Source of the DNA: Candidatus Moraniibacteriota bacterium
GTDB taxonomy: Bacteria; Patescibacteriota; Minisyncoccia; Moranbacterales; UBA1568
DNA: 64,000 nt
NCBI GenBank assembly: GCA_016699425.1
Contig: CP064975.1
Location: forward strand, 66,979 to 130,978
Direction of reading: 5' to 3'
Below the pieces are notes generated by a model. It was given only the letters and a program-made list of their open reading frames with translations, ran no database searches and was not told the origin of the DNA. Both the position numbers and the translations under genes were made by a program. Positions 9,429-64,000 of the stretch are shown here, one piece after another (the stretch's first letter is position 1; each line of letters starts with the position of its first letter).

Positions 9429-9450
9429 GTGTTTAAGTGGAGACGCGCGT

Positions 9451-26612: not shown

Positions 26613-28853
26613 ATGCCCCGCTCTCTTCTCATCTTCCTCGCTCTCTTCATTCTCGCTACCACGACCCTCTCCCTCGTCCCCACCACGTCTCTCCACGCAG
26701 GCCTCATTCCCTGCGGCCTCTCCACCCCGGATCCCGATATCCTCGCTAGTACGGATCCTACTCAAGGCACATCCCGTTGCACCCTCTGCCACCTGTTAGT
26801 TGGCTTAAGTCGCATCGTCGTCTTCCTCCGAAACATCATGGCCGCAGTCGCGGTCGCCGTCTTGGTCGCGATGGCCATCATCTACCTCACCTCAGGGGGG
26901 AATGAAGGTCGCATGACCTTTGCCAAAGGAGGCATGTTCGCGGCTTTGATTGGACTCGGTGTCGTCCTCTTAGCCTGGGTCACGGTCAACTTCATCTTGA
27001 CGCTTCCCATCATCAATACTACAACCGGTCTCATCCGTACCGGTTGGGATACGGTGAGCTGTAGTACCACATCCCTCTCGACGGGAGCGGTGGCTACAAC
27101 CACCCCCACCCCTAGTACGGGCGGAGGTGGAGCAGGTGGCACGGGTGGAGGCCTGGGAGGTGGAGGTGATCTCGTCACCTTGCCCAGAGATACATCCGGC
27201 GCGGTCATTGTTGCTCCCATCGCTTCGCCAGCGAGCCTTGGTGTGACGGCTCCGTCTGCTTCGAGTGCAATCCTCTCATGGGGAGCAGTGCCTGGAGCGA
27301 CCGGGTATGAGGTGGAACGCTGTACGGGACTGACCTGTACCGTCTTTACCTCCCTGGGTACGTCCAATACCACGAGTTTTACCGACACCACCCTCACTCC
27401 CGGTACCAGCTATTCCTACCATGTCCGTGCGATCACCTCAGCTGGAGTCTCAACCTGGTCGAATGTGGTGGGAGTGACGACACCTGCCAATCCTGGGAGT
27501 ACGCCCGGGACCGGGGCGATGTGTCCCGATCCGGGGTCTCTCCAATTCCTGTATGGCAAGAGCTGGGTGAGTGATTTCACCCAAGCCGGCAACAACCTGC
27601 CCGTCCGTTGGGAAGTGAGTGTCGATGCCAACAACCAGCTCACCTATCGAGTCACCTGTCGGATGAGTCTCCTCGGCTGGGGAGCTGATCTGTCCCCTCA
27701 GATCACCGTCCCCATTGGGAGTGTCACAGGCAGCTCCTTCCAGGTCTTGAGTCCGGGGACCCAACGCCTGACGAATGCTCAGGGCAACTACTGTGAAGTG
27801 ACCCTCAATGCTTCGATCCTTTCCTACACCCCAAGGACGAGTGCCACGATGACCTTCCAGGGGCAGAACTTTGTCACGGGGGCGTGTTCGGGAGGGAGTG
27901 GGAGTGATGGGGGTGGAGGGAGTGGGGGGACGGATGGAGGAGGGGTGGTGTTGCCTGGGACGGGTGGCGAAGGGGCTTCTCGCTGGCTTGATCCTGCCGG
28001 TGGTGTCACTGTAAATGGTGAGCACTTCAATACGACAGCAGATATCACACGGGGATTGAATGCATATTATACCGGAGTCAATCAACTTGTCAGGAACCGA
28101 TGTGATGCAAGGCATTTGGGCAATCTGGGTGGGCATACGATTTGGATATACGATGATACTGGTACCGAATGTACCGCATACCGGGAGACGATGTCTGATT
28201 ACCAGGAAGCTTCCTATGCACTTCAGCGTGCCGAGAATCCTGATATGGTTACAATCAATGAGCAGCCCAGGTCCTGTAGCTTTGCGCAATACGCACCCGG
28301 CCCAGATATAAAAAGCACCGCATGGAATTGTAGCGCCGATGGGTTCACCTGCGGTTCCCTCGATCCTGGACAGTGGCGCCGGACAGAAGGGATTTTGATC
28401 CAGCTCTCGCCTGGTATCGCGTATACTATTCCCTACACCTATAATCCTGCCACTGATGGTGGTTTGGGATTTAATCTGTCCGTTCATCACTGGTTTGGTG
28501 ATGCCCCCTACAATAATGTTGATCTCTGGCTGTCGGCATCGCCGGGACAGGCTGCTGATACGGATTGTACATCCGCACTTGCTGGCGGAAGTGGAGGAAC
28601 TCCCTCGATCACCGTGAAGACAGGTTATTGCGAGCCGCCGCGTACCGGATACATCAATATCAAGGCGACATCGTGCCAGTATTTCAACACGAACGAACCC
28701 TACCAATTTAGGAGAGGGGGTGGAGACACTTGTTTGGTTAGGATTTTCGGCCCGGATGAGCTTGGCAGTTCCCCGATGCAAATCACCCTGAGTAACGGAA
28801 CAACCGGCGGTCGATCCTACACCTGCCCAGCAGATGTGAATAGCCCCAGGTAA
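26613..28853 (+). CDS. secreted TrbC/VirB2-like pilin domain fused to fibronectin type III and large C-terminal domain
   Basis: Signal peptide, then a two-TM segment with YLTSGGNEG between the helices (the same architecture as the 62-63.7 kb pilins), then a Gly-rich linker, an FN3-like module (SWGAVPGATGYEVERC...YSYHVRAITSAGVS) and ~400 aa of Cys-containing domain; the start was set to ATG at 26613 (the ORF-track start is TTG). Confidence 0.7.
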   Translation: MPRSLLIFLALFILATTTLSLVPTTSLHAGLIPCGLSTPDPDILASTDPTQGTSRCTLCHLLVGLSRIVVFLRNIMAAVAVAVLVAMAIIYLTSGGNEGRMTFAKGGMFAALIGLGVVLLAWVTVNFILTLPIINTTTGLIRTGWDTVSCSTTSLSTGAVATTTPTPSTGGGGAGGTGGGLGGGGDLVTLPRDTSGAVIVAPIASPASLGVTAPSASSAILSWGAVPGATGYEVERCTGLTCTVFTSLGTSNTTSFTDTTLTPGTSYSYHVRAITSAGVSTWSNVVGVTTPANPGSTPGTGAMCPDPGSLQFLYGKSWVSDFTQAGNNLPVRWEVSVDANNQLTYRVTCRMSLLGWGADLSPQITVPIGSVTGSSFQVLSPGTQRLTNAQGNYCEVTLNASILSYTPRTSATMTFQGQNFVTGACSGGSGSDGGGGSGGTDGGGVVLPGTGGEGASRWLDPAGGVTVNGEHFNTTADITRGLNAYYTGVNQLVRNRCDARHLGNLGGHTIWIYDDTGTECTAYRETMSDYQEASYALQRAENPDMVTINEQPRSCSFAQYAPGPDIKSTAWNCSADGFTCGSLDPGQWRRTEGILIQLSPGIAYTIPYTYNPATDGGLGFNLSVHHWFGDAPYNNVDLWLSASPGQAADTDCTSALAGGSGGTPSITVKTGYCEPPRTGYINIKATSCQYFNTNEPYQFRRGGGDTCLVRIFGPDELGSSPMQITLSNGTTGGRSYTCPADVNSPR

Positions 28854-34266: not shown

Positions 34267-34782
34267 ATGACAGTCAGGAAAACAAATCTTAAAGGATCAA
34301 CGCTCGGTTTTTCTCTCATGCTGCTTTCGCTGCTCCTGTTTTCGGGGATCACGCTCCTCAGCGTTTCGGTTTTGGAGCGGAAAGCGAGTTTCGCGACGCA
34401 GAAGTCCGTCATCGCGTTTCAGGCGGCGGATAGCGGCGCGGAACGTGTCTTGAAACGCATCTATATCGATAATTCGCCGCTGATCGCTTCTGTGCCAATC
34501 AATGGTCCGATGCCGGATAGCACACTAAACACCCTGGCTGGCAACCTGTCTTCTGTATCTAGTGCGAGCTGTTCGAGCGGTGTGATCAGTGCAACCAATA
34601 CCAACAGTCCCGCATCGTCAAGTCCGAATTACACCTTTCAGGTCACGTTCTTTGATAGCACTGGTACGGCCATCACTTGTTCGGCGACCGACTGGCGCGA
34701 CAAAGTGGTCCGAATCCGATCGGAAGGATTCTTTCAACGGACTTCGCGGGCGATCGAAGTCGGAATCCGCGCCCGAAAATAA
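34267..34782 (+). CDS. type IV pilus minor pilin-like protein (PilX-N-like)
   Basis: N-terminus LKGSTLGFSLMLLSLLLFSGITLLSVSVLERKAS resembles the prepilin hydrophobic segment; the Glu at +5 is replaced. Confidence 0.45.
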   Translation: MTVRKTNLKGSTLGFSLMLLSLLLFSGITLLSVSVLERKASFATQKSVIAFQAADSGAERVLKRIYIDNSPLIASVPINGPMPDSTLNTLAGNLSSVSSASCSSGVISATNTNSPASSSPNYTFQVTFFDSTGTAITCSATDWRDKVVRIRSEGFFQRTSRAIEVGIRARK

Positions 34783-50600: not shown

Positions 50601-51098
50601 AGTGATGCCACGCTCGCTGCTTCCGGTGCCGTGACGATCGCCGCCAATGCGGTCGCCCTTGGTACCGACACCACCGGCGACTATGTTTCCTCCGCCACCG
50701 CTTCGGGTGGTCTCACCCTGACCGGGACCGAAGGCGGCTCGCTGGGCATTCTCCTCCAACCCTCCGCTGATGCCCTCTCCGCTACCACGAGCTCAGGCTC
50801 TGGCCTCCAACTCCTCGCGACGGGTCTCACCTTGCTTCAGGGCTGTGCGAACAATGAGGTCTTAGCCTGGAATGAAACGACGGATGTCTGGAGTTGTGCC
50901 AGTATTGCCGGTACGGGTGGAGTCACCGGCACCGGAGCCACAGGTCAAGTCACCTACTGGACGGGCACGAGTACGGTCGCGGGTGAGAATCAATTGAATG
51001 TCTCTCGGGGCGGCACCGGGGTGGATGGCTCAGCCGTCACCAATGGGCAGCTCCTCATCGGGCACGATGCGAACAACAACTTCTCCTCGCGGCTCTGA
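44577..51098 (+). CDS. giant repetitive surface protein, fragment 2 of 4
   Basis: Continuous with fragment 1 once the C5 and A3 run lengths are set to those of the identical downstream copy; it ends at a 1-nt-short C-run in a repeat junction. Confidence 0.8.
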   Translation: MSRQAMSSSQVVSVSLHLGAKVNLTTAVTGTLPVANGGTGASSLTDLIALTTHTTGNYVATITSGNGLTGGNGGSEGAALTLGLDLLDADDSTGAIASNSGLEFQGAGNNELTLLQGCADLEILAWDNTTNEWECATVSGVGGLSGSGINGQVTYWTGTSTLSSEAQLHVSRGGTGVNGSAAVNGSLLIGNGTGYTLTTLTDGTGVSITEGSGTITIASTLGTDINLASAEVTGTLPVANGGTGAATLASNGVLYGNGTGIVQVTTAGTTGQFLVANGSGVPTFVSMGTDATLAASGAITIAANAVALTTDTTGNYVQSITNGNGLTGGAAGSEGATLTLGLDLLDSADGTGSTASNSGLEFQGASSNELTLLQGCANNDVLAWVDASNSWACTSVGGVGAGDITAIGDAVSGDAFTASGTAGTSLYFYDASGRGQLTIADLSAPHTYTLPDTTGTLITNGDTGTVTGTMITDNTIEEVDLEATNAATNGYILSYDSGTGGFTWISNTGGTGSSKWTDSGAITYLTDTTDSLAIGGSTSNASKFYFDVATGNQIIFEGTGADDANETSLIIANPSTDRTITLADLSGTVILSGHSFTGDVTATLDSDNSTALTIAADAVALGTDTTGDYVSSATASGGLTLTGTEGASLGILLQPSADALSATTSSGSGLQLLATGLTLLQGCANNEVLSWNETSDTWGCSSVSGVGGVTGSGANNQVAYWTGTSSLAGENQLNVSRGGTGVNGSAAANGSLLIGNGTGYTLATLTDGTGINITEAAGSITVAVTSAVPTSIVNDTNVTGSISSNVLTLGWTGQLSVARGGTGASTLTSNGVLYGNGSSAVAATAAGTSAQLLVANGSGVPTFVSMSGDVTITNAGVSAIGANTVALTTDTTGNYVQSITNGNGLTGGAAGSEGATLTLGLDLLDSADGTGSTASNSGLEFQGASSNELALLQGCADNEILSWNNATNVWQCATVSGVGGITGSGTNGQVTYWTGTSTLAGENQLSVTRGGTGLGSYTIGDLLYATGATTLAALPDVATGNVLLSGGIGVAPSWGKVNLTTAVTGTLPVANGGTGASSLTDLIALTTHTTGNYVATITSGNGLNGSASSEGATPTLALGALTADWNQTGAFDFSLNNASSELKILESAGAAFYGVLDVGDLSGSDKTYTFPNASGTVALLDGGQTFTNATWNGTTIGVANGGTGATTLTPNGVLYGNGTGIVQVTTAGTTGQFLVANGSGVPTFVSMSSDATLAASGAVTIAANAVALGTDTTGDYVSSATASGGLTLTGTEGGSLGILLQPSADALSATTSSGSGLQLLATGLTLLQGCANNEVLAWNETTDVWSCASIAGTGGVTGTGATGQVTYWTGTSTVAGENQLSVSRGGTGIGSYAVGDVIYASGTSTLSKLTAGSDGQVLILAGGVPTWNTIGGGGGGGVTADSLDFTEFQDTLDLDAALTLNQTTNTWSQSFTGTTTTGFAYTATSLTTGSALNLTTTNTATTNTALSAAQFNLTNAQATNANTNGVTGLAVNFTNNPSAAGNSEYAVRIQNQSTSNTTDNALAALLLLDNADTTATGTTIVTDAIAITNSGGSNFTNFLNTPTLDISAAGAITGATGITSSGNITFSGLTPNSFLYSGTGGLLTTTTAPTNGQLLIGSTGVAPVAAALTQGTGITVTNGAGSITVASTLGTSVDLTTEVTGTLPVANGGTGATTLTPNGVLYGNGTGIVQVTTAGTTGQFLVANGSGVPTFVSMSSDATLAASGAVTIAANAVALGTDTTGDYVSSATASGGLTLTGTEGGSLGILLQPSADALSATTSSGSGLQLLATGLTLLQGCANNEVLAWNETTDVWSCASIAGTGGVTGTGATGQVTYWTGTSTVAGENQLNVSRGGTGVDGSAVTNGQLLIGHDANNNFSLAALTQGTGITVTNGAGSITVASTLGTSVDLTTEVTGTLPVGNGGTGAATLASNGVLYGNGTGIVQVTTAGTTGQFLVANGSGVPTFVSMSSDATLAASGAVTIAANAVALGTDTTGDYVSSATASGGLTLTGTEGGSLGILLQPSADALSATTSSGSGLQLLATGLTLLQGCANNEVLAWNETTDVWSCASIAGTGGVTGTGATGQVTYWTGTSTVAGENQLNVSRGGTGVDGSAVTNGQLLIGHDANNNFSSRL

Positions 51099-52040
51099 CC
51101 CAAGGGACGGGTATCACCGTCACCAATGGCGCGGGGAGTATCACGGTGGCGTCCACCCTCGGCACCAGTGTTGACCTCACCACCGAAGTCACCGGGACGC
51201 TCCCGGTCGGAAACGGCGGCACCGGGGCAGCCACCCTCGCGAGTAATGGCGTCCTCTACGGCAATGGTACGGGCATCGTCCAGGTCACCACCGCGGGCAC
51301 CACCGGTCAATTCCTCGTCGCCAATGGCAGTGGAGTCCCCACTTTTGTTTCCATGAGTAGTGATGCCACGCTCGCTGCTTCCGGTGCCGTGACGATCGCC
51401 GCCAATGCGGTCGCCCTTGGTACCGACACCACCGGCGACTATGTTTCCTCCGCCACCGCTTCGGGTGGTCTCACCCTGACCGGGACCGAAGGCGGCTCGC
51501 TGGGCATCCTCCTCCAACCCTCCGCTGATGCCCTCTCCGCTACCACGAGCTCAGGCTCTGGCCTCCAACTCCTCGCGACGGGTCTCACCTTGCTTCAGGG
51601 CTGTGCGAACAATGAGGTCTTAGCCTGGAATGAAACGACGGATGTCTGGAGTTGTGCCAGTATTGCCGGTACGGGTGGAGTCACCGGCACCGGAGCCACA
51701 GGTCAAGTCACCTACTGGACGGGCACGAGTACGGTCGCGGGTGAGAATCAATTGAATGTCTCTCGGGGCGGCACCGGGGTGGATGGCTCAGCCGTCACCA
51801 ATGGGCAGCTTCTCATCGGTCACGATGCCAACAACAATTTCTCCTCGCGGCTCTGACCCAAGGGACGGGTATCACCGTCACCAATGGCGCGGGGAGTATC
51901 ACGGTGGCGTCCACCCTCGGCACCAGTGTTGACCTCACCACCGAAGTCACCGGGACGCTCCCGGTCGGAAACGGCGGCACCGGGGCAGCCACCCTCGCGA
52001 GTAATGGCGTCCTCTACGGCAATGGTACGGGCATCGTCCA
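49577..52040 (+). repeat. tandem near-identical ~758-bp coding repeats (3 full units + partial 4th)
   Basis: Units start at ~49577, 50335, 51093 and 51851 (GCTCTGACCCAAGGGACGGG...). Confidence 0.85.
51146..51856 (+). CDS. giant repetitive surface protein, fragment 3 of 4 (one repeat unit)
   Basis: Identical to the previous unit; bounded by the same CC-versus-CCC junction defect on both sides. Confidence 0.7.
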   Translation: MASTLGTSVDLTTEVTGTLPVGNGGTGAATLASNGVLYGNGTGIVQVTTAGTTGQFLVANGSGVPTFVSMSSDATLAASGAVTIAANAVALGTDTTGDYVSSATASGGLTLTGTEGGSLGILLQPSADALSATTSSGSGLQLLATGLTLLQGCANNEVLAWNETTDVWSCASIAGTGGVTGTGATGQVTYWTGTSTVAGENQLNVSRGGTGVDGSAVTNGQLLIGHDANNNFSSRL

Positions 52041-55000
52041 GGTCACCACCGCGGGCACCACCGGTCAATTCCTCGTCGCCAATGGTTCCGGGGTCCCGAC
52101 CTTTGTCTCGCTGAGTAGCGATGTCACGATCAGTAATGCAGGGGTTGCCACCATCGCCGCCGATGCCGTCGCTCTCACCACCGACACGACGGGGAACTAT
52201 GTCGCCAATGTTGCGAATGGCAACGGCATCACTGGAGGCAGTGCTGGATCTGAAGGGGCTTCCCTCACCCTCACCCTTGATCTCCTCGACTCCGCCGATG
52301 GCACGGGTTCTACCTCCTCTAACTCTGGCCTCGAGTTCCAAGGTGCGTCCTCCAATGAGCTCGCCCTCCTTCAGGGGTGTGCCGACAATGAAATCCTCTC
52401 TTGGAACAATACGACCAATGTCTGGCAGTGTGCCACCGTCAGTGGTGTCGGAGGCATCTCAGGCACCGGCACATCGGGTCACGTCGCCTTCTGGACTGGC
52501 ACCTCTTCCCTTTCCTCGGAAGCCCAACTCTCAGTCAGTCGGGGTGGCACCGGCCTCGACGGCTCAGCGGCGGCCAATGGCACCCTCCTCATCGGTAATG
52601 GTACAGGCTACACGCTCGCTACCTTGACCGACGGCACCGGCATCAGTATCACCGAAGGCGCGGGCACGATCACGGTCGCGAGTACCCTCGGCACTTCCAT
52701 CGCTGCGGGCGAAGTCGACGCCGACTCCCTCGACTTCACCGAATTCCAAGACACCCTCGACCTCGATGCGGCTCTCACCTTGAACCAAACCACCAATACC
52801 TGGGCACAGACCTTCACCGGCACAACGACCACGGGCTTTGCGTATACGGCCACCTCGCTCACCACCGGGAGTGCCCTCAACCTGACGACGACGAATACCG
52901 CCACCGCCAACACCGCCCTCACTCCGGTCAGCTTCAACCTGACCAATGCCCAATCCACCCTCGCCAACACCAATGGTGTCACGGGCCTGGCGGTCAACTT
53001 CACCAACAATCCATCTGTCGCCGGCAACAGCGAGTACGCCGTCCGCATCCAGAATCAAGACACAAACAATACGACCGACAATGCTCTCTCTGCCCTCCTC
53101 CTCCTCGACAATGCGGATACGACGACATCCGGCACGACCATCGTCACCGATGCCATCGCTATCACCAACAGTGGGGGATCAAACTTCACCACTTTCCTCA
53201 ATACCCCAACCCTCGACATCAGTGCCGCCGGAGCGATCACGGGCGCGACTGGCATCACCTCCTCCGGCAATATCACCTTCTCTAGTCTCACGGCCAACAG
53301 CTTCCTCTACTCCGGTACGGGTGGCCTCCTCACCACGACCAGTGCTCCCACCAATGGTCAACTCCTCATCGGCAGTACGGGTGTGGCTCCCGTAGCGGCC
53401 GCTCTGACTCAAGGCGCTGGCATCACCGTCACGAATGGCGCCGGGAGTATCACCATCGCCTCGACTTTGGGGACGAGTGTGGACGGGAGTGAGATCACCG
53501 ATAACACCGTCGAGGAAGTCGATCTCGAGGTAACCAATGCGCCGACGGGCGGCTATGTGCTGACCTATGATGCCGGTACGGGCGGCTTCACCTGGGTCGA
53601 TGCGGGCGGTCTCGGCAATTCGAAGTGGACCGATTCGGGTACGCTCACGTATCTCACGCAGACATCTGACGATGTTGCTTTCGGCGGCTCGACCACGACC
53701 TCGGCGCGTTTCGTTTTCGATGTCACCACCGGCAATCAAATCCTCTTTGAGGGCACCGGCGCGGATGATGCGAATGAAACGACACTCGTCATCACCAATC
53801 CGACTGCCGACCGGACGATCACCCTGCCGAATCTGACTGGTACCGTCGCCACCATCGATGGGGGACAGACGTTCACAAGCGCGACCTGGAACGGCACAGC
53901 TATCAGCGCTCAATACGGTGGCACGGGTCTCGACGGTTCAGCCGCGGCCAATGGCACGCTTCTCATCGGTAATGGCTCAGGCTACACCCTCGCCACCCTC
54001 ACCGACGGTACCGGTATCACTATTTCTGAAGGCGCAGGGAGTATCACCATCGCCTCGACCCTCGGTACCTCGGTTGATCTCGCCAGTGAAGTCACCGGGA
54101 CACTCCCTGTCGGGAATGGCGGCACCGGCGCCACCACCTTCACGAGTAACGGCGTCCTCTATGGCAATGGCACCGGTGCCGTCCAAGTCACTGCCGCTGG
54201 CACCAGTGCTCAACTTCTCGTGGCCAATGGCTCCGGGGTCCCGACCTTTGTCACCCTCTCGAGTGATGCAACCATCTCCAATGCCGGTGTCCTTACCGTG
54301 GCGGCCGATGCCGTCGCCCTCACCACCGACACCACCGGCAACTATGTCGCCAATGCCCAGACGAGTGTACTGACTGGTCTCACGGGCGGCTCCGCGGGGA
54401 GTGAAGGGGCGTCCCTCACCCTCGGCCTCGATTACTCGCAAGCCCTCACCGGCGATGTCGGCCTCGCGGCCAATGCCGGTGTCTTCGGTCAATCTGGCTT
54501 TGCCTTTGAGGGGAGTACAGCCAATACGATTGAGACCTACCTCGTCATCAGCGACCCGACGACGACGGACAAAACGATCACTTTCCCGGACGCTTCAGGC
54601 ACGGTTGCGGTCTCGGGATCGGGTGGTCTCTCTGTCTCGGCGCTTGGGGACATTACTTGTTCCACCTGTGTCGTATCAGGAGGAACATTGTTCACAGCGG
54701 CGGGCACTTCAGGTTCCAATCAGACCATCGCTCAAGGCGACACCCTGACGATCGCTGCGGGCACGGGTATCACCACAACGGGTGGAGCAACGGATACGAT
54801 TACTATTGCGAGTACGCTCGGGACTTCTATCTCCGCTGGAGAAGTCGACGCCGACTCCCTCGACTTCACCGAGTTCCAAGACACCCTCGACCTCGATGCG
54901 GCCCTCACCCTGAACCAAACCACCAATACCTGGGCACAGACCTTCACCGGCACAACGACCACGGGCTTTGCGTATACGGCTGACGCTCTCACCTCTGGCT

Positions 55001-58000
55001 CTGCCCTCACCCTCGCTTCTGCCGCCGCCGCCCTCACCGGGAGCCTGGAGACCATCACTCTCTCCGGTAGTAACGCTGCCAATACCGGCTCCCTCCTCGA
55101 CCTCCAGAACACGGGTACCGCCAATGCCAACACCTCCCTCCTCATCCAGCACAATGCCACCGGCACCGGCAACCTCGCCTTCCGCGTGAATGATGTGGCG
55201 AGTGACACCTCCCCCTTCGTCATTGATGGGACAGGGAATGTGGGGATCGGGACGGCGGCACCGAGTCTTCCGCTGCACGTCTCACGAAGCACGGGGGGTA
55301 CGTATAACAAGTTAGCCGGATTGTATGTTCCAGACATAACGACGGGTCAGTATGTGGAAGCCCCAATCGGTAGGAGCGAGACGGTACGCAATAGGGCAAG
55401 TTGGTCATTTCTCTATGATGGAGATGGCAGTGCGAATAATGCGATGGGGCTGCTTTTCTACGGGGATTCGTCTGCACGTATTACTGCGCTCGCCTCGGGG
55501 AATTTCGGTATCGGCGATACCTCTCCTGCTTCACTCTTTACGGTCGGAGATGGAGATGCCTTCCAAGTGAATTCAACCGGCGCGATTGTGGCTGCCACCG
55601 GCATCATCTCGAGCGGCACCATCACCTTCAGCGGGTTCACGAGTAATGGCGGTGTCTTATATACCAACGGTTCCGGTACTTTGGCTCAGGCGACGGCAGG
55701 GACGAGCACCCAGGTGCTTCTCGGTGGCGCGACCCCGAGTTTCGGTACTATCGGCGCCTCCTCCGTCACCGCCGACTCCCTCGACTTCACCGAATTCCAA
55801 GACACCCTCGACCTCGATGCCAACCTCACCCTGAATCAAACGACCAATACCTGGGCACAGTCGTTCACGGGCACAACGACCACAGGCTTTGCGTATACGG
55901 CGGATGCACTGACTTCGGGATATGCTGAGACGCTCAATGTGAACGGTGCAGCCGTTCTCACCACTGGCGGTGCTCTCAACATCGATGGTCCGACCGGGGC
56001 GGCGACGATGAATACCACTACGGGCCTCCTTAATATCTCCTCGACCGGGGCCATCACGAACTCCACCACGGGCGCGGGGTCCGGCTCCCTCTTCCAGGTG
56101 ACCGGCAACGGAGCCATCACCCCGACCCTCGCCTCGATCTCAGATACCTCGGTCATGACGACGACCGGCAAGCTCCTCGATCTAACGGCTGATGCGGCCA
56201 CCACTACAACTGGCCTCCTCACTATGAATGCGGCTGGTTTGACCACTGGCTACGCTCAGAATATTAACGTGAATGGCGCCGCGGTCCTCACCTCGGGCGG
56301 GGCGATCAATATCGTCGGTCCGACGGGAGCAGCAGCTCAGGCGGCAGGCGCGCTCCTCAAGATCACTACGACGGGCGCAGTCACAGGAACAGCCGGTACG
56401 GGCAACTCGCTCCAGGTGACGAGTGGCACGGTTACGGGAACAGTGGCTTCCATCACAGATGCTGCTGTGATGACGACGACGGGCTCTCTCCTCACTCTTA
56501 CAGGTAACTCCGCGACGACCACAACGGGTCTCTTGCAAGTGAATGCCAATGCCCTCACCTCCGGCTCGGCCGTGAACATCGCCTCCTCCTCCGTCGCCTT
56601 CACCGGCTCCCTCGAATCCATCACCCTCTCTGGCTCCAATGCCGCCAATACCGGCAACCTCCTCCTCATCGCCGATACCGGGGCCCTCAATACCACCACC
56701 TCCTTCAAAGTCACCGCCAATGGTGCGGCTACTCAAGTTGCCGCCCTGATCGAAAACACCGGCTCCGGTACGAGTTTCCGCGTCAATGATGTCGCTAGTG
56801 ACACCGACCCCTTCCTCATTGATGCCTCGGGTCAGGTCGGGATCGGGGACGCCACCCCCAACACAATTCTGGATGTCCTCTCCTCTGGAGCAGCGGACAC
56901 TATCTTTACTCTCGCCAATACCAATGCCGGTGACTATGACCCCGTCGTCAAGTTTGAACTGACTGAAGGCACCCCCCTCTTCACCCTCGGCATCGATGAC
57001 TCTGACTCGGACAAGTTCAAGATCTACTCGGGTGATGGCCTCGCCAGTGGGGATGAGTTTGTCATTGACGCGAGCGGCACCACCACCATCGCTAACCTCA
57101 ACCTGGGCGCTACCTCCTTTGATGAGAACGCGGGAGCAGTGACCTGGATCGATATGCCGGTGACGAGTGCGGCGACTTCCGGGACCGTCGAGAGCTACAC
57201 CGCGGCCATCGATGGGACGAGCTTCCTCACGGTGTACGCGCAGTCGAACGGTTCGGGCGGTCTTGATACAGCGCAGTCCGCAGTGAAATCCGACGTCGAG
57301 CTCGATGCTACTGTCGACGGCTTGGCTACCAAGGTCAATGCTGGAGCCTGCAGCGATACGACTTTCACGCGTGACACCAACGGTACGATCTGTGTCGATT
57401 CCACCAACGGTCGCATCTATTTCCGCTACGGTGGCGCTTGGCACTACTCTGCCCAGACGGCTGGCTTTCAGATCCCGAGCTATGAAACGGCCCCTTTGAG
57501 TAAACTTACCAGTGACGCTGAGACCGAGTTAGAAAACGCGCTGCCCTTCGATACGACCAATCATCCAGAGTACCTCACTCAAAGACTTCAGGCGGGTGAA
57601 TTCCTCATCCCGTATGTGGATGAGTATCTCGAGGATGGTGCGGTCCACGGCCTGTACGCTCGCTTCGGTGATGTGAAGAGCAAGCTTTTCGGTGAGGAAC
57701 AGCAGCAGATCGCTGATCTCTCCCTCCAGACAACAGCGAATATCACGACGCTTTCCGAACTCCAGACGAGTGTCGACGAACAGCTCTTGCTCGCGAGTAC
57801 AAACCTGACGGCTTTCGCCACAAAGGATACCGAGATCGATGCGAAGCTCGCCGAACACGATACGTACTTCGCTCGTGACCTCGCCCGGCTCGATACACTC
57901 GATACATTGACTGCACAAATCGCACTCGACCAGAACACGCTCGCGGCCAATCTTACCAGTATCCAGTCCGATATGGTGACGCTCACGGCACAGGTGGGGA

Positions 58001-58461
58001 CGCTGACCGAATTCTTCAACGCCTTCGATCTCGGCAATATGATCGCCAAGGATGAGCTCGGTAATGTTGATCTCCTCGGTGGGGCACTCCGTGCTAAGTC
58101 GCTGGCGACTGGCGGAATTACGATTGAAGTATCAGATGCAGAGGCACCAACTATCGGGACGGCGACGGTATTGCCTGTGGTGACGGATACGGATGGTGAT
58201 GGCAAAGATGATGAGACCGGTTCGGACGGACGAAGTATCGAGATCCGGACCAAGGCGATGATCCCGATGGTGAACGGCTCGCGTATCTTCACGAGTTTCA
58301 AAGGCAATCCGAATGCCTTTAGCTGGGTCGAAAAGGTGCGTGACGGGGACGGGGACTATGTTGGGTTCAAGATTCGGCTCTCGGAAAAGGTCGATGAGGC
58401 GGTAAAAGTTGACTGGTGGCTAATCGAACAAAAAGATACATTCTCCGCAGCGACACCATAG
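51904..58461 (+). CDS. giant repetitive surface protein, fragment 4 of 4 (C-terminal, includes non-repetitive C-terminal domain)
   Basis: Repeats continue to ~57.2 kb, followed by a unique ~400 aa C-terminal domain. Confidence 0.8.
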   Translation: MASTLGTSVDLTTEVTGTLPVGNGGTGAATLASNGVLYGNGTGIVQVTTAGTTGQFLVANGSGVPTFVSLSSDVTISNAGVATIAADAVALTTDTTGNYVANVANGNGITGGSAGSEGASLTLTLDLLDSADGTGSTSSNSGLEFQGASSNELALLQGCADNEILSWNNTTNVWQCATVSGVGGISGTGTSGHVAFWTGTSSLSSEAQLSVSRGGTGLDGSAAANGTLLIGNGTGYTLATLTDGTGISITEGAGTITVASTLGTSIAAGEVDADSLDFTEFQDTLDLDAALTLNQTTNTWAQTFTGTTTTGFAYTATSLTTGSALNLTTTNTATANTALTPVSFNLTNAQSTLANTNGVTGLAVNFTNNPSVAGNSEYAVRIQNQDTNNTTDNALSALLLLDNADTTTSGTTIVTDAIAITNSGGSNFTTFLNTPTLDISAAGAITGATGITSSGNITFSSLTANSFLYSGTGGLLTTTSAPTNGQLLIGSTGVAPVAAALTQGAGITVTNGAGSITIASTLGTSVDGSEITDNTVEEVDLEVTNAPTGGYVLTYDAGTGGFTWVDAGGLGNSKWTDSGTLTYLTQTSDDVAFGGSTTTSARFVFDVTTGNQILFEGTGADDANETTLVITNPTADRTITLPNLTGTVATIDGGQTFTSATWNGTAISAQYGGTGLDGSAAANGTLLIGNGSGYTLATLTDGTGITISEGAGSITIASTLGTSVDLASEVTGTLPVGNGGTGATTFTSNGVLYGNGTGAVQVTAAGTSAQLLVANGSGVPTFVTLSSDATISNAGVLTVAADAVALTTDTTGNYVANAQTSVLTGLTGGSAGSEGASLTLGLDYSQALTGDVGLAANAGVFGQSGFAFEGSTANTIETYLVISDPTTTDKTITFPDASGTVAVSGSGGLSVSALGDITCSTCVVSGGTLFTAAGTSGSNQTIAQGDTLTIAAGTGITTTGGATDTITIASTLGTSISAGEVDADSLDFTEFQDTLDLDAALTLNQTTNTWAQTFTGTTTTGFAYTADALTSGSALTLASAAAALTGSLETITLSGSNAANTGSLLDLQNTGTANANTSLLIQHNATGTGNLAFRVNDVASDTSPFVIDGTGNVGIGTAAPSLPLHVSRSTGGTYNKLAGLYVPDITTGQYVEAPIGRSETVRNRASWSFLYDGDGSANNAMGLLFYGDSSARITALASGNFGIGDTSPASLFTVGDGDAFQVNSTGAIVAATGIISSGTITFSGFTSNGGVLYTNGSGTLAQATAGTSTQVLLGGATPSFGTIGASSVTADSLDFTEFQDTLDLDANLTLNQTTNTWAQSFTGTTTTGFAYTADALTSGYAETLNVNGAAVLTTGGALNIDGPTGAATMNTTTGLLNISSTGAITNSTTGAGSGSLFQVTGNGAITPTLASISDTSVMTTTGKLLDLTADAATTTTGLLTMNAAGLTTGYAQNINVNGAAVLTSGGAINIVGPTGAAAQAAGALLKITTTGAVTGTAGTGNSLQVTSGTVTGTVASITDAAVMTTTGSLLTLTGNSATTTTGLLQVNANALTSGSAVNIASSSVAFTGSLESITLSGSNAANTGNLLLIADTGALNTTTSFKVTANGAATQVAALIENTGSGTSFRVNDVASDTDPFLIDASGQVGIGDATPNTILDVLSSGAADTIFTLANTNAGDYDPVVKFELTEGTPLFTLGIDDSDSDKFKIYSGDGLASGDEFVIDASGTTTIANLNLGATSFDENAGAVTWIDMPVTSAATSGTVESYTAAIDGTSFLTVYAQSNGSGGLDTAQSAVKSDVELDATVDGLATKVNAGACSDTTFTRDTNGTICVDSTNGRIYFRYGGAWHYSAQTAGFQIPSYETAPLSKLTSDAETELENALPFDTTNHPEYLTQRLQAGEFLIPYVDEYLEDGAVHGLYARFGDVKSKLFGEEQQQIADLSLQTTANITTLSELQTSVDEQLLLASTNLTAFATKDTEIDAKLAEHDTYFARDLARLDTLDTLTAQIALDQNTLAANLTSIQSDMVTLTAQVGTLTEFFNAFDLGNMIAKDELGNVDLLGGALRAKSLATGGITIEVSDAEAPTIGTATVLPVVTDTDGDGKDDETGSDGRSIEIRTKAMIPMVNGSRIFTSFKGNPNAFSWVEKVRDGDGDYVGFKIRLSEKVDEAVKVDWWLIEQKDTFSAATP

Positions 58462-58921: not shown

Positions 58922-61495
58922 ATGCAGGCATCAGAAAAGCCATCCTTTGCGCGTTTTGGGAGTCAGGCGAATTTTTCCAATAACCCTAACGAGAGACCGA
59001 ATGATGTCGTCCCCCGTGCCGATGCCGTGATCCGACCGGGCGCTGTCGGCGGACAAGTCACGAAGGCGCGCACTTCGAAAGCGTTCGACTTTATTATCAC
59101 CGCGGTGCTCGTGCTTCTCTTCTTCGGTGTACCGGTATTCTTCACAGGCCTGACATTCCAGGGCATCGCCTTCGAGAAACAAATCTTTTTCTACTTCTGT
59201 CTCCTCATCGGCCTCGTCGCGTGGGTGTCCAAGGGCGTCATGACTGGTGAGATGCGGGTTCGCCGTACCCCACTCGATATCCCGATCCTCCTGTTTTGGT
59301 TATTTGCGATCGTGGCGACGGTCTTTTCGGTTGACCGATGGCATAGTTTCTGGGGCTTCTTCGGTGATCCGTCCCGTGGTTTCATCAGCCTGACCGCGCT
59401 CGTCTTGGCCTATTTCTTCATCCTGAGTCACTTCACCGAAAGGCGGCGCAACCTCATGCTGACGGCATTTCTCGCCTCGGGTGTCTTGGTCATCGTCTGG
59501 AGCTTCCTCGTCGTTATGAAGATTCACTTCATTCCAGCGAGCTTTGAAGCGATCGCTCCGCTCTCCCTGATTGGTTCCATGTCGACTTTGACCCTCTACC
59601 TCGCCCTGCTCGTACCACTCATGGTGACGGCACTTTTCCTCCTCTTCCGTGACGGCTCAGGCGCCTCACGTGGGCTGCGGATTTCAGGTGCGGTGGTGCT
59701 TGGTGTGGCGCTCCTCTTGGACTTGTTCCTCCTCATCGCGCTCTACCCGTTTGTGACGTGGGCGGTGGTGCTCGGTGGACTCGGGTTCTTCCTGATCTAT
59801 ATCTTGGCTCAGATCGTCCGGCCGGTGCAGGAATTGACGTGGATGCCGATGGTCATCTTCGTCATCGTCCTTGCCTTCCTCATGATTGGGAGGAATAACC
59901 TGGCTCAGGCGACGCTCCCGGTTGAAGTGACACCGAATATGAAGCTTTCCTGGCAGGTGGTTCAGGAATCGCTCAGTGCCAATTTCCTCTCAGGTTCCGG
60001 TCTGGCGACCTATGGATATGACTTCTCGCTCTTCCGTCCGCAGGAATTCAATGGTAATGCACTCTACACCCTCCGGTTCTATCAAGGGACTGGCCTCGTC
60101 GCCGAAGCCCTTGCCACGATAGGTGTTGTCGGGACGATACTCATGCTCATCGTCTGGTTCTCGCTCCTCTCTATCGGTCTCTATCTCCTGACCATGGACA
60201 AGGCCAAGAATAAAATCGCCTCACTGGGCTTGTGGTCAGTCACGGTGATGCTCTTCGTCGCGGGTTTCGTCTCGCCGATAAATGCGACGATACTCATCCT
60301 CGGCGTCATCCTCTCGGCTCTTGCCCTCGCGACGCTCCTCCAAGAAAGTGGCTCAGAGGAACGCTATTGGGAATTGTCATTCCGTGCGACGCCCAAGTTC
60401 GCCCTCGCTCTCGCGTTCGTCTTCATGGTGGTCTCGGCGGGTGTGGCCTTCATCTTTGTCTTCATGGGTAAGGTCTTCCTCGCGGATGTCTCGGCGGGTG
60501 TGGCTACCCGACAGCCGGCCTCGATTGACGGTACGATTCCAAAGTACGTGCGAGCGATCCAGCTTTACCCGCAGGAGGGGCGGTACTATACGCGCATCGC
60601 ACAGGAATACATGGCCGTCGCCAATGCCGAAGGTGGTAAGAACGCTGATGAGCGCGATGTGAACCGGATCGCCTTCACGGTACGTGAGTCGGTCGCAGCC
60701 GGACTCCGAGCCAAGGACCTGATGCCAAACGACGTCCTAGCGACCGAAGCTCTCGGCCTCGTCTATGAAAACGCCAGTATCTTTGCGACTGATGCCCTGC
60801 CCAAAGCCGAAGAGATGTATACCCGAGCGCTCGAGCTTGAGCCTCAGAACCCACTCTTCGCGATCAAGCTCGGCCAGATCAAGCGCCTCTCGGCTGATGG
60901 GAAGCCGGATGGAGCTGAAAAGACGGCACTCTTGAACGAAGCGAAGGGGCTCTTTGAGCAGGCGATTGAGAAGAAAGCTGACCTCGCCATCGGTCACTAC
61001 AACCTCGCAGTTATCCACTCGCGATTGAAGGACTACGATGCAGCGATAAGCGCGACTTCGCAAGCTATCCGACTGGCGCCCACTAACCTCTCATTCCGGT
61101 ACAACCTCGGCCTCCTCTATCAGGAGCGCAATGCCGAAGGGGACCGAACTCAGGCGGAAAACCTCTACAAGCAGGTGCTCGATGCCAATGACCGGCTGAT
61201 CGACGTCCGTCTCTCGCTCGGCCTCCTCTATGAGGCCCAAAACAAGCGTGAAGCTGCGATGGCGGAATATGAGAAAATCCTCACACTTATTCCGGAAGAC
61301 GAGCGAACTTCGGCCAATGTGAAACAGACCCGTGCCCAGATCACTCAGGTGATCGACAACCTCCGCTCGGGCAAGGGCAATATTCCCGCTGGCAATAGTC
61401 TCGCTGAGCCCGGTCCGGTCACGCCGGCGACCGCTGCTCCGACCAACCCCGCCGCGAGCCAAGGTGAATCTCTCTTGAATGGCCCGACACCATAA
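58922..61495 (+). CDS. polytopic membrane protein (O-antigen ligase/Wzy-like) with C-terminal TPR repeats
   Basis: At least 10 TM helices, then TPR-like repeats (AIGHYNLAVIHSRLKDYDAAI..., FRYNLGLLYQERN...); the start was set to ATG at 58922. Confidence 0.6.
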   Translation: MQASEKPSFARFGSQANFSNNPNERPNDVVPRADAVIRPGAVGGQVTKARTSKAFDFIITAVLVLLFFGVPVFFTGLTFQGIAFEKQIFFYFCLLIGLVAWVSKGVMTGEMRVRRTPLDIPILLFWLFAIVATVFSVDRWHSFWGFFGDPSRGFISLTALVLAYFFILSHFTERRRNLMLTAFLASGVLVIVWSFLVVMKIHFIPASFEAIAPLSLIGSMSTLTLYLALLVPLMVTALFLLFRDGSGASRGLRISGAVVLGVALLLDLFLLIALYPFVTWAVVLGGLGFFLIYILAQIVRPVQELTWMPMVIFVIVLAFLMIGRNNLAQATLPVEVTPNMKLSWQVVQESLSANFLSGSGLATYGYDFSLFRPQEFNGNALYTLRFYQGTGLVAEALATIGVVGTILMLIVWFSLLSIGLYLLTMDKAKNKIASLGLWSVTVMLFVAGFVSPINATILILGVILSALALATLLQESGSEERYWELSFRATPKFALALAFVFMVVSAGVAFIFVFMGKVFLADVSAGVATRQPASIDGTIPKYVRAIQLYPQEGRYYTRIAQEYMAVANAEGGKNADERDVNRIAFTVRESVAAGLRAKDLMPNDVLATEALGLVYENASIFATDALPKAEEMYTRALELEPQNPLFAIKLGQIKRLSADGKPDGAEKTALLNEAKGLFEQAIEKKADLAIGHYNLAVIHSRLKDYDAAISATSQAIRLAPTNLSFRYNLGLLYQERNAEGDRTQAENLYKQVLDANDRLIDVRLSLGLLYEAQNKREAAMAEYEKILTLIPEDERTSANVKQTRAQITQVIDNLRSGKGNIPAGNSLAEPGPVTPATAAPTNPAASQGESLLNGPTP

Positions 61496-61940
61496 GGTGG
61501 GGTAAAGCGGAGAGGGGAGAATGAGGAAAATGCTATGCCCACCTCTAGCCTCTTTCGAAGAGCTTATCGTCTGGCAACGATCGATGGAACTTGCTGGGGC
61601 CGTTTATTTGGGTACAGAAGCACTGCCAAAATCGGAACAGTATGGTTTGATGAAGTCAGATGTGCCGTTCTGCAGTTTCTATATCCTTCCAATATTGCTG
61701 AAGGCTATATAAAGGAAGGGACTGGGTGAGTATGTCTACTTCTTGTCTGTCGCCGATGCTTCGGCAGCGGAACTTGAAACTCAAATACGCCTGGTCTGTG
61801 GTATTTATCCGGATATGAGTCTGAAGCGATCACTTGCCCTTCTGGATGAGGTACAGAAACTGTTAACAGTTATGATCAAAAAACTGAAAGCGAAATCAGC
61901 TCACCCCTAAACGTTCGCCGCTCTGCATTTTCCGACCAAT

Positions 61941-62255
61941 ATGTTCAGACCTATCATAGGCAGTATCATTTTCAGTAGCACTCTCTTTCCGAGGAGCGTC
62001 TTCGCCGGCGTGATCGATGAAGCCCAACCTCTGTCGGTTGGGTTGGCCAAGATCCTTGACTTTTTATTGTCAATCATCGGTGTAGTTGCTATCATTGGAT
62101 TAGTGATTGCGGGGCTCTTGTATTTCTTCGCGGCGGGTGACATGCGTCAGATCGCCCTCGCCAAGAAAGCGACGCTCGCGGCCATCACCGGCATCGTCAT
62201 CGCGCTCGGGGGCTATGTCCTCATCCGGACGATTGCGACGTTTGTCGCTGGTTGA
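61941..62255 (+). CDS. TrbC/VirB2-like pilin family protein (paralog 1)
   Basis: Signal peptide plus two TM helices separated by LLYFFAAGDMRQIALAKKA. Confidence 0.6.
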   Translation: MFRPIIGSIIFSSTLFPRSVFAGVIDEAQPLSVGLAKILDFLLSIIGVVAIIGLVIAGLLYFFAAGDMRQIALAKKATLAAITGIVIALGGYVLIRTIATFVAG

Positions 62256-62318
62256 ACACAAAAATAAAAAATCCTTGTCAGTCAGACTGACGAGAGAAAA
62301 GAAAGGGGGTGAGAGGTT

Positions 62319-62699
62319 ATGCAAAAATTCAAAAAATTGGCTATCGGTGCGGTGAACGGTCTCGTGCTGCTCGCCCCAGCCACAGCGTTAGCGCTGACAA
62401 ATGGTAGCTGGGCTGATCGGGGGACGACGAACTATCAGTCATCCGGACTGCCGACAGGAACGATTTACCAGATTATCTCGTCAACCCTGTCCTGGCTCCT
62501 GGCCATCCTCGGTTTCATCGCGGTCATCGGTTTCGTGATATCGGGCATTCTCTATCTCACCGCTGCTGGCAACGAGACACAGATCGAGAAGGCGAAGAGC
62601 GCCATGACGTACTCCATCATTGGCGTCATCGTCGCCCTCATGGGCTACGTGATCATCCAAGCTGTCAACGCTTGGCTCGGGACATCAGCGAACTTCTAG
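62319..62699 (+). CDS. TrbC/VirB2-like pilin family protein (paralog 2)
   Basis: GGGGGTGAG RBS; signal peptide ending AxA; ILYLTAAGNETQIEKAKSAMTYSIIGVIVALMGYVIIQAVNAWL. Confidence 0.7.
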   Translation: MQKFKKLAIGAVNGLVLLAPATALALTNGSWADRGTTNYQSSGLPTGTIYQIISSTLSWLLAILGFIAVIGFVISGILYLTAAGNETQIEKAKSAMTYSIIGVIVALMGYVIIQAVNAWLGTSANF

Positions 62700-62835
62700 T
62701 GTTCTTTTCGATCGAAAAGAGAAAGGCAATCCCGCCAGAGCGGGGTTGTTTTCTTTTCATCCGGACTGGGGGTGTACAGACGATGCTCATGTAGTGGTAT
62801 ACTAGAAGGGAGGCTAAATAAGCTAACCGTATTCG

Positions 62836-63207
62836 GTGAGTATGTTGCACAAAAAACTGGTTTTTATTGTACTCGGGGCGGCCATCACGTTTCTTCCGAA
62901 CATCGTCACAGCGACGGGTTGGATAGCAGGACAAACCAATGTCGCGAATTCCAATCTTCCTGTTTCGAGTGTGTACGGCATCATCTCCAATACTCTGTCC
63001 TGGCTTCTCGCCGTTCTTGGTTTCATCGCGGTCATGGGCTTTGTTCTTTCAGGAATCCAATACCTCTTGGCGGCGGGGGATGAAGGTATGGCTGAGCGGG
63101 CGAAAAATGCTATGAAGTACTCCATTATCGGCGTCATCGTCGCTCTCGGTGGGTATGTGGCTATTTTTGCCATCAATAACTGGCTCAACGCCGGAACAAA
63201 TTTCTAA
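62836..63207 (+). CDS. TrbC/VirB2-like pilin family protein (paralog 3)
   Basis: IQYLLAAGDEGMAERAKNAMKYSIIGVIVALGGYVAIFAINNWL; the start may be the ATG at 62842. Confidence 0.7.
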   Translation: MSMLHKKLVFIVLGAAITFLPNIVTATGWIAGQTNVANSNLPVSSVYGIISNTLSWLLAVLGFIAVMGFVLSGIQYLLAAGDEGMAERAKNAMKYSIIGVIVALGGYVAIFAINNWLNAGTNF

Positions 63208-63282
63208 GAGCGTGGTTTCAGGATTTTTCTGACGGGTGCGTAACATAAATACAAAAATCAGCGTATGTCGGTATCTGTGAGT

Positions 63283-63669
63283 ATGAAAAAAATTCTTCCC
63301 GCTTTTGTGGTTGCGGTCTTTCTTCTGGTGACGTGGATTCAACCAGTGGCAGCGACTGGCTGTCCCACTGGGTATGCTATGACGGCTGGAGTATGTTTTC
63401 CAACTGGTACCGGTCTCTCTAGTCAGCCATTGGCGACTATCATCATGGGAGTGATGAACTGGATGCTCGCCGTCCTGGGCTTTATCGCCGTCCTGGGATT
63501 TGTCATCTCGGGGATGCAGTACCTGTTATCAGCCGGGGATGAAGGAATGGTCGAGACCGCCAAACGCAACATGAAATACTCTATCATCGGTGTCGTCGTC
63601 GCCCTCTCGGGCCGTGTCCTCATCATGGCGATCAATAATTTGCTGAACGCCAGCACGACACCATTTTAA
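63283..63669 (+). CDS. TrbC/VirB2-like pilin family protein (paralog 4)
   Basis: MQYLLSAGDEGMVETAKRNMKYSIIGVVVALSGRVLIMAINNLL; the start was trimmed to MKKILPAFVV. Confidence 0.7.
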   Translation: MKKILPAFVVAVFLLVTWIQPVAATGCPTGYAMTAGVCFPTGTGLSSQPLATIIMGVMNWMLAVLGFIAVLGFVISGMQYLLSAGDEGMVETAKRNMKYSIIGVVVALSGRVLIMAINNLLNASTTPF

Positions 63670-63693
63670 TCCCCAAGGCCGATTATCTTTCGT

Positions 63694-64000
63694 ATGAAAA
63701 AAGGACTTCTGCTGCCAGTACTCGGATTCTTTCTCTGCTTCAGTTTCCTTGGCCTGCTCTCCACCGAAACAGTATCAGCCCAGACCTGTGTCGGAACTGG
63801 TTTGAGCTGTGTACCGATCGGATCGTGTACAGGTACTACCAACTCGTCACTTACTTGTGCCGGTTCGAATCTTTGTTGCCAAGCAACGGGGACAGGCGTC
63901 GGTGGTCCGACTGGCGGGACGGGGACAGGTGTCGGCGGTCCGACTGGTGGGACCATCTCCGTGAGTATTTCCAACCCACTCTCGTACAATACGGTGAACG
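63694..64000 (+). CDS. secreted Cys-rich, Gly/Thr-rich protein (3' end beyond window)
   Basis: Begins ATG MKKGLLLPVLGFFLCFSFLGLLSTETVSA (signal peptide), then CVGTGLSCVPIGSCTG...CAGSNLCC; the ORF runs open to the window end and the competing antisense ORF is ignored. Confidence 0.5.
   Translation, partial: MKKGLLLPVLGFFLCFSFLGLLSTETVSAQTCVGTGLSCVPIGSCTGTTNSSLTCAGSNLCCQATGTGVGGPTGGTGTGVGGPTGGTISVSISNPLSYNTVN

Follow-up and report, generated by a model that had tools for sequence, protein, structure and literature searches.

The 3' end of a 64,000-nucleotide stretch of Candidatus Moraniibacteriota bacterium, an ultrasmall member of Patescibacteria (contig CP064975.1, positions 66,979 to 130,978 of the forward strand; the whole stretch is referred to below as the window) carries an array of five consecutive genes for pilin-like proteins, p1 to p5. 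All five lie on the plus strand, from position 61941 to 64000 and beyond, with intergenic gaps of 27-136 nt, and their position is chromosomal; p1-p4 are complete, and p5 is cut by the window end. The proteins are assigned to the T4SS_pilin family, named after type IV secretion systems (T4SS), and a sixth member of the family lies elsewhere in the window (Table 1). A preliminary description, made from the DNA sequence without database searches, had reported four adjacent plus-strand pilin-like open reading frames (ORFs) here, each with a signal peptide and a two-helix hairpin. All four are present in this form, but the fifth paralog had been missed, as had the fact that the phenomenon is already published for Patescibacteria (PMC12102498, PMC10633639). 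The existence, the family assignment and the tandem arrangement of such arrays are thus in the literature, and the locus is a further example.

Table 1. Coordinates of the array genes and of associated features in the window
Feature	Position	Strand	Description
p1	61941..62255	+	104-aa VirB2/TrbC-like pilin; shortest, most TrbC-like paralog
p2	62319..62699	+	126-aa pilin paralog; exact product already on public record
p3	62836..63207	+	pilin paralog, 123 aa from GTG, or 121 aa from ATG 62842
p4	63265/63283..63669	+	134/128-aa pilin paralog
p5	63697..64000	+	first 101 codons of the fifth family member
TPR membrane protein	58922..61495	+	857 aa, polytopic; WaaL/Wzy_C-like N-terminal domain (supported by fold and transitive homology) and C-terminal tetratricopeptide repeats (TPR)
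23S-rRNA-IVP remnant	61521..61910	+	frameshifted, four-helix-bundle; between TPR gene and p1
Terminator-like hairpin with U-tract	62723..62762	+	between p2 and p3
Sixth member (p0-type)	26613..28853	+	T4SS_pilin hairpin fused to fn3; 33 kb upstream of the array

Two of the starts are ambiguous. For p3, the ATG, which is the start called in relatives, is likelier than the GTG. For p4, an exact-sequence look-up of public records returned the 128-aa form as a called gene in public assemblies and gave no match for the 134-aa form, and the start is therefore placed at 63283.

Family assignment and protein architecture

All four complete array proteins exceed the gathering score of PF18895 T4SS_pilin (26.6 bits for the whole protein), with 31.7 bits for p1, 41.2 for p2, 43.9 for p3 and 49.4 for p4. 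Among the other family members, the p5 ortholog in the near-identical strain L001 scores 61.0 bits, distributed over two stretches, and the fn3 fusion scores 30.1 bits. Judged by these profile scores, the membership of p1-p4, of the p5 ortholog and of the fn3 fusion in the T4SS_pilin family is near-certain. Moreover, PF18895 is present in 120/120 homologs among the matches listed, and several homologs bear the NCBI product name 'pilin [Ca. Moraniibacteriota]'. The T4SS-pilin architecture proposed in the preliminary description is hence borne out by the profile search, with p1 nearly reaching the TrbC/VirB2 family as well.

In particular, p1 matches PF04956 TrbC/VirB2 (gathering score 27.9 bits) with 26.3 bits (E 8.9e-6), the alignment covering model positions 16-97 of 98, while p2-p4 give no match to this model. 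In related genomes, all of the 55 p1 orthologs match T4SS_pilin, and 35/55 match TrbC/VirB2 at E<=1e-3 (the best at 4.4e-8). Comparison of the p1-type profile with the p4-type profile by hhalign gives a probability of 99.8% (E 1e-27), so that the p1 type is clearly homologous to the other paralogs. As far as profile matches can tell, p1 and its orthologs form the bridge from the array family to TrbC/VirB2. In addition, p2-p4 have sub-threshold scores (24.7-33.6 bits, the cutoff being 40) against the NCBIfam model NF045849, a pilin-like protein of Mycoplasma integrative and conjugative elements (ICEs). A tblastn search of p1 against 72,556 plasmids gave no match.

The layout of p1-p4 comprises a hydrophobic signal peptide with an AxA-type site, a short polar segment and two long hydrophobic helices. 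The inter-helix loop of the paralogs reads Y-L-x-A-A-G-D/N-E...A-K, and the alignment confirms the conserved inter-helix motif noticed earlier, which is common to all four in the form Y-(L/F)-x-(A/S)-(A/G)-G-(D/N/E)-E...AK...YSIIGV(I/V)VAL.G. The signal peptide of p1 (predicted cleavage, marked by a caret, at SVFA^GVIDE) is followed by the two-helix hairpin; that of p2 (ALA^LTNGSW) precedes an exposed N-terminal segment that is variable and rich in Ser/Thr/Asn/Gly, after which comes an invariant hairpin.

The AlphaFold2 (AF2) model of p4 has a predicted local distance difference test (pLDDT) score of 79 overall and of 85-90 in the hairpin, the helices of which span residues 50-82 and 87-121 (~33 aa each). 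Within the exposed N-terminal segment, strands 31-34 and 37-40 of the model pair into a small beta-hairpin. Both Cys27 and Cys38, which are at least 90% conserved, sit in this beta-hairpin.

Signal peptides bear on the possibility that the array proteins are pilins or pseudopilins of the type IV pilus (T4P) or type II secretion system (T2SS) type, assembled by a PilB-type ATPase. Patescibacteria do rely on T4P, a PilB/T2SSE ATPase is found within 10 kb of the array in 2/80 related loci (described below), and the window contains an ORF of 171 aa (34267-34782, plus strand) with a weak PilX_N-like N-terminus, that is, of the T4P minor pilin type. Still, the AxA-type cleavage motifs are kept across orthologs, and the prepilin peptidase motif G^(F/M)xxxE is absent from the paralogs, which have ordinary signal peptidase I-type sites instead; the lack of the class III signal excludes T4P pilins. 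Moreover, the paralogs have two transmembrane helices, unlike the single N-terminal helix with a globular head of T4P, the array proteins have no T4P Pfam matches, and two loci of 80 do not amount to linkage. This possibility is accordingly regarded as extremely remote.

Two family members are longer. The part of p5 that lies in the window encodes a signal peptide, a 6-Cys module and a Gly/Thr repeat, with a 33-nt tandem repeat at 63886-63951. The gene is seen whole in L001 and in the 91%-identical relative L004, where the orthologs have 265 aa and end in two tandem T4SS_pilin hairpins. The preliminary description had taken this gene, running off the window, for a separate Cys-rich, Gly/Thr-rich secreted neighbour. 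It is indeed Cys-rich and has a signal peptide, but it is the fifth member of the pilin family rather than a protein apart from it.

The fn3 fusion consists, in this order, of a signal peptide, a Cys-containing segment, the pilin hairpin, a Gly/Thr linker, the fn3 domain and a Cys-rich C-terminal region of ~400 aa. In many other Moranbacteria loci the array opens with a gene to which the N-terminal 150 aa of the fusion show 35-44% identity, and by this similarity the pilin module of the fusion appears to correspond to that opening paralog. All domain fusions agree with a topology in which both termini are outside and the inter-helix loop is inside, because the Cys-rich module follows the signal peptide and fn3 follows helix 2.

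Paralog lineages and arrays of related genomes

The preliminary description had noted that the paralogs are divergent at the DNA level and had concluded that they form an old, maintained multigene family, and both statements hold. The DNA identity between paralog cores is 65-70% over 198 nt, and the corresponding protein cores within the window are 34-72% identical. Each paralog was aligned with its counterparts in five relatives, and the identity of ortholog cores is 79-99% for p1 and 88-100% for p2-p4. Since orthologs are conserved to this degree at a paralog identity of 34-72%, each paralog represents an old, separately maintained lineage.

The synonymous divergence (dS) of ortholog cores is 0.4-2.9 overall, with a ratio of nonsynonymous (dN) to synonymous divergence, omega, of 0-0.17. 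In particular, omega is 0.06-0.17 for p1 orthologs; cores of p2 orthologs are 94-100% identical at dS 0.25-0.69, with indels in the N-terminal segment; and cores of p3 orthologs are 88-100% identical at dS up to 2.9, with omega 0.03-0.04. The hairpins are near-invariant under strong purifying selection. A recent duplication is ruled out by the DNA identity of 65-70% and the separate ortholog groups, and chance ORFs are ruled out by omega far below 1 and by orthologs in 80 genomes.

Most of the variation, in the form of substitutions and indels, falls within the 11-27 residues that separate the cleavage site from helix 1 (the mature N-terminal segments of p2-p4 are encoded at 62394-62468, 62914-62976 and 63355-63435, respectively) and in the last few residues. 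When compared with L004, p4 is a mosaic, with dS of 0.02 in the core and dS of 1.5 and dN of 0.31 in the N-terminal segment. In the comparison with L001, p3 has dS of 1.8, and the adjacent p4 has dS of 0.04. This pattern points to recombinational exchange, between strains, of the exposed segments or of whole alleles.

The preliminary description had gone on from multiple isoforms to a variable filament composition, which was an inference. The paralog-specific conservation points instead to fixed, non-redundant roles, with diversification limited to the exposed N-termini, rather than to interchangeable isoforms or an antigenic-variation repertoire, as each paralog is conserved on its own across species. 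Several divergent VirB2 copies in a row are also found in the virB2 families of Bartonella and Anaplasma, where, as summarised in PMC12102498, the surface variability is thought to serve host interaction or immune evasion. These bacteria differ from the present case in being intracellular animal pathogens with diderm VirB systems, and a repertoire of their kind is disfavoured here because of the individual conservation of the paralogs.

Between p2 and p3, a consensus scan found the terminator-like hairpin (-26.4 kcal/mol, z -3.8). A counterpart whose stem differs in sequence (compensatory changes) occurs in L001 (~757-800, z -4.1) and L009 (~8196-8245, z -5.0). This suggests a conserved terminator or attenuator that divides p1-p2 from p3-p5 and that probably sets the expression ratio within the array. 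A promoter scan yielded sites no more numerous than in shuffles.

Arrays were further compared in 80 loci from species-representative genomes, with flanks of +-10 kb. Most of these loci are titled Moranbacteria or Moraniibacteriota (lineage Patescibacteria group, Parcubacteria group), and the best match among species representatives is 75-79% identical, so that the window's own species has no genome in this set. Many of the remaining loci (L010, L011, L014, L015 and others) are titled 'uncultured Bdellovibrionales', yet carry the same array, with up to 79% identity to p4; these titles are probably a taxonomy mislabel in third-party annotation (TPA) assemblies.

A hidden Markov model (HMM) built from the paralogs identifies 3-9 tandem pilin-domain genes per locus in 80/80 loci. 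Their order recurs: often a member of ~150 aa or more comes first, followed by a TrbC-like member of 90-104 aa, two to four members of 120-135 aa, and a last one of 200-770 aa. According to ORF clustering, the conserved neighbours of the arrays are NusA (43 loci), trigger factor (39), ClpP (38), an ABC substrate-binding protein (37), a methyltransferase (36), pyrophosphatase (32), phosphoglycerate mutase (26) and TypA (20). The Pfam-annotated contexts of three more relatives agree with these housekeeping neighbours, and IF2 is also found next to arrays of relatives.

Directly 3' of the array in relatives there is a convergent gene pair (8397-9830 and 9857-10867 in L004, both on the minus strand), which is kept in L006, L008, L010 and L089-L091. 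It encodes a polytopic membrane protein of 276-533 aa and a coiled-coil protein of ~336 aa with a C-terminal transmembrane helix (with weak Band_7 in some relatives), neither having a solid Pfam match. The pair are candidates for array-associated factors.

Proposed role and its alternatives

Tandem pilin genes of this kind were surveyed by Quinonero-Coronel et al. 2025 (PMC12102498), who applied PF18895 and PF04956 to 3,035 Patescibacteria genomes. VirB2-like pilins were found in 1,948 VirB4-positive assemblies and near virB4 in 1,135 of them, and 441 arrays of 2-11 tandem pilin genes, with a mean paralog identity of ~25%, were found in 383 assemblies, most commonly in Microgenomatia and Saccharimonadia. 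An array was defined there as at least two pilin genes in tandem or with one non-pilin gene between them; the present locus has five. In a set of 15 Moranbacteria assemblies from Table S1 of that survey, VirB4 is marked present in 13, and the rows for one Moranbacteria genome give VirB2 genes 752-756 and VirB4 gene 770, that is, 14 genes apart. The published Moranbacteria T4SS clusters also include a separate PrgI-like VirB3.

The array described here resembles the published Patescibacterial ones in its PF18895 matches (with or without PF04956), tandem genes, low paralog identity, location on a chromosome of the candidate phyla radiation (CPR) and lack of a relaxase context. Unlike them, it is not beside virB4, is embedded in housekeeping synteny, and belongs to Moranbacteria (class Paceibacteria). 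Our analysis adds to the survey the paralog-by-paralog orthology, the strong purifying selection on the hairpins and the mosaic N-termini. Moreover, in Southlakia epibionticum ML1 a predicted pilin series, essential by transposon sequencing (Tn-seq), lies inside a T4SS cluster (Wang et al. 2023, PMC10633639), and a 2025 review (PMC12857230) highlights this series as a possible pilus-forming T4SS in monoderms.

With the TrbC/VirB2 pilins of diderm T4SSs (PF04956; RP4 TrbC, Agrobacterium VirB2), the array proteins share the signal peptide, the two hydrophobic helices, the short charged loop and the size of 90-130 aa, and p1 aligns with nearly the whole TrbC model. Among the differences there are the monoderm host, the lack of an adjoining virB operon, the multiple paralogs, and members that carry fused extracellular domains or have two copies of the hairpin in a single chain. 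Mbov_0395 and ICE_MMCAP2_0565 of Mycoplasma ICEs (NF045849) are also small pilin-like hairpin proteins of wall-less or monoderm hosts, but the scores here fall short of the cutoff and the surroundings are not those of an ICE.

In view of this homology, the analogy with VirB2/TraA and the essential pilin array of S. epibionticum, we consider it reasonably probable that the proteins are subunits of a filament that a VirB4-type T4SS, encoded at another place in the genome, assembles. Each pilin would be exported by Sec, lose its signal peptide and reside in the membrane as a hairpin whose termini both face outwards and whose loop faces inwards. A VirB4-powered T4SS of the monoderm type would then extract the pilins from the membrane, and these would polymerise into an extracellular filament or conduit directed towards the host cell. 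The several paralogs would take distinct, non-redundant structural parts, of which p1 and p2 may be the abundant subunits, given their position upstream of the conserved terminator. The longer members (p5 with its double hairpin, and the fn3 fusion) may serve to present additional domains, and the exposed N-terminal segments would diversify under interaction with hosts or phages.

Several results weigh against this role. The score of p1 stays 1.6 bits under the TrbC gathering score, no PDB sequence matches a profile of 46 homologs below E 0.5, and Foldseek finds no match at E<=1e-3 to the p4 model in the PDB. The Foldseek output consists of generic helical hairpins only (chemoreceptors, ATP synthase c), and the fold search is uninformative because a two-helix hairpin is too simple and resembles many proteins. 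As the preliminary description had stated for the window, no relatives of VirB4, VirD4 or VirB6 are found among its ORFs of at least 450 aa (64 kb). It had also proposed looking for a T4SS ATPase beyond the window. In relatives, a scan for the Walker A motif in ORFs of at least 400 aa, limited to +-10 kb, yields no VirB4 or VirD4 in the 80 related loci, the four ORFs retrieved being two ABC ATPases and two PilB/T2SSE ATPases. Any linkage of the array to a T4SS in this lineage is therefore putative, and a looser one beyond 10 kb is conceivable in view of the published genome with virB4 14 genes from an array. Finally, a pilus has yet to be seen for any T4SS of Patescibacteria, and those of monoderms are normally pilus-free (PMC12102498, PMC12857230).

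The last point would be accommodated if the proteins were inner-membrane parts of a T4SS translocon, similar to the small hairpin subunits VirB3/PrgI, and not polymerising pilins; two transmembrane helices with a short loop also occur in VirB3-like proteins. However, the Pfam matches are to pilin families and not to VirB3/PrgI (PF12666), and the cleavable signal peptides and exposed variable N-termini suit secreted or exposed subunits. A separate VirB3 exists in the published Moranbacteria clusters, as mentioned above, and five to nine copies are too many for a stoichiometric channel part. Such a translocon role is therefore considered quite improbable.

The surroundings of the array bear on the main rival of the filament, namely a T4SS-independent anchor or oligomerisation module for surface display, in which the short paralogs would form a membrane scaffold and the long ones (the double hairpin with the Cys knot, the fn3 fusion and the 200-770-aa members of relatives) would present adhesin-like domains. 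The array is not located inside a virB/trb-type T4SS operon: its neighbours are the WaaL-like TPR protein and giant surface proteins in the window, and housekeeping genes in relatives. Display is consistent with these housekeeping surroundings (NusA, trigger factor, ClpP, TypA, pyrophosphatase) lacking VirB4 within 10 kb in the 80 loci, with a long multi-domain member at the start or end of nearly every array, with the fn3 fusion lying in the window 33 kb away from the array, and with the giant surface proteins and LamG proteins around the locus. The four short members, however, have almost no extracellular domain to present, and the near-invariance of both helices across species suits tight polymer packing better than a simple anchor. 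Moreover, the homology to TrbC/VirB2, the essential S. epibionticum series and the array 14 genes away from virB4 in at least one Moranbacteria genome favour a link to a T4SS. Display without a T4SS is thus judged unlikely, if less so than the translocon role.

A more specific proposal, to which we give little credence, is that the hairpin family of Moranbacteria has turned into a surface module that is inherited vertically and has lost its link to virB4. Such a module would form a heteromeric filament or scaffold of fixed composition (p0-p5, each in a conserved role of its own) bearing adhesin-like domains, with exposed Ser/Thr/Asn-rich N-termini that are swapped by recombination and maybe O-glycosylated. 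If this were true, it would be a pilin system built or decorated unlike any characterised T4SS pilus, with the Cys knot and fn3 as the adhesin-like domains and the adjacent WaaL/PglL-like TPR enzyme as the candidate glycosylator.

The locus is of interest since Patescibacteria, which live attached to host cells, account for much of the diversity of uncultured bacteria, and since in the sole Patescibacteria species tested both the T4SS and the pilin series belonging to it are essential. The locus alone raises no new question and adds a clean Moranbacteria example. The comparison suggests two points by which experiments could be guided: the paralogs, each conserved on its own, are not interchangeable isoforms, and only short exposed N-terminal segments vary and recombine.

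Neighbouring genes and other features of the window

The preliminary description had called the protein encoded upstream of the array Wzy-like with TPR repeats. The TPR part is confirmed directly, its direct Pfam matches being to TPR families only, and the Wzy part is upheld by fold and by distant homologs, but not by a direct match: Pfam Wzy_C PF04932 (cutoff 31.7 bits) gives none at E<=1. Close homologs in Moranbacteria, 58-90% identical, also have TPR matches only. An exhaustive search retrieved 2501 representatives, and among ten distant homologs one matches Wzy_C above the cutoff (34.3 bits vs 31.7) and two below it. For the N-terminal 643 aa, the AF2 model (pLDDT 74.5) gives a single significant Foldseek match in the PDB, the WaaL O-antigen ligase 7tpg_B (E 4.9e-5, probability 1.00, TM-score 0.54 on the target, 441 columns). 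An assignment as a WaaL/Wzy-like protein with TPR repeats is thus supported by the modelled fold and transitive homology. The polytopic N-terminal fold of ~640 aa and the Wzy_C matches of distant homologs are shared with WaaL/Wzy_C, while the lack of a direct Pfam match, the long C-terminal TPR domain and an organism without lipopolysaccharide set the protein apart.

The TPR gene adjoins the array in 15/81 loci, all from the closest clade, and is probably a neighbour and not an obligate part of the array. In L008 it comes after a block of glycosyltransferase and sugar-nucleotide genes. O-glycosylation of the Ser/Thr-rich pilin N-termini by this protein, by analogy with PglL, is possible but unsupported.

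An insertion separates the TPR gene from the array. This segment (the 23S-rRNA-IVP remnant) has a partial PF05635 match, is split into two ORFs, and carries five single-base insertions compared with the L004 copy, which is intact and encodes 118 aa. The segment has the appearance of a pseudogene, with the flanking pilin genes intact.

The window is ordinary chromosome. Its housekeeping content includes leucyl-tRNA synthetase (LeuRS), methionyl-tRNA synthetase (MetRS), a class II aminoacyl-tRNA synthetase, TGT, the alpha and beta subunits of ATP synthase, ParA/ParB, FolD and RecO; other genes encode an SLT transglycosylase, LamG proteins and two giant repeat proteins.

The giant proteins (42232-51098 and 51146-58461, plus strand; 2173 and 2185 aa) are Gly/Thr/Ser-rich, with a recurring '...GGTG...' motif and no solid Pfam matches, and are presumably surface adhesins. 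Each is preceded by a shorter ORF (803 and 236 aa, respectively) with the same repeats; a frameshift or stop seems to have separated these ORFs, as N-terminal parts, from the giant ones. At 37109-40586 (plus strand), two LamG/concanavalin-like lectin proteins are encoded side by side, one of them with four LamG_3 repeats (312 bits), which would fit a gene neighbourhood concerned with the surface or with the binding of host glycans.

The transglycosylase (90-533, plus strand) is a small SLT lytic enzyme (83.5 bits) and, judging by its domain, could act as a VirB1-like wall-opening enzyme. LeuRS (29046-31910, plus strand) has an unusual architecture, in which the editing domain is followed by an inserted NUDIX domain (residues 387-510, 65.8 bits).

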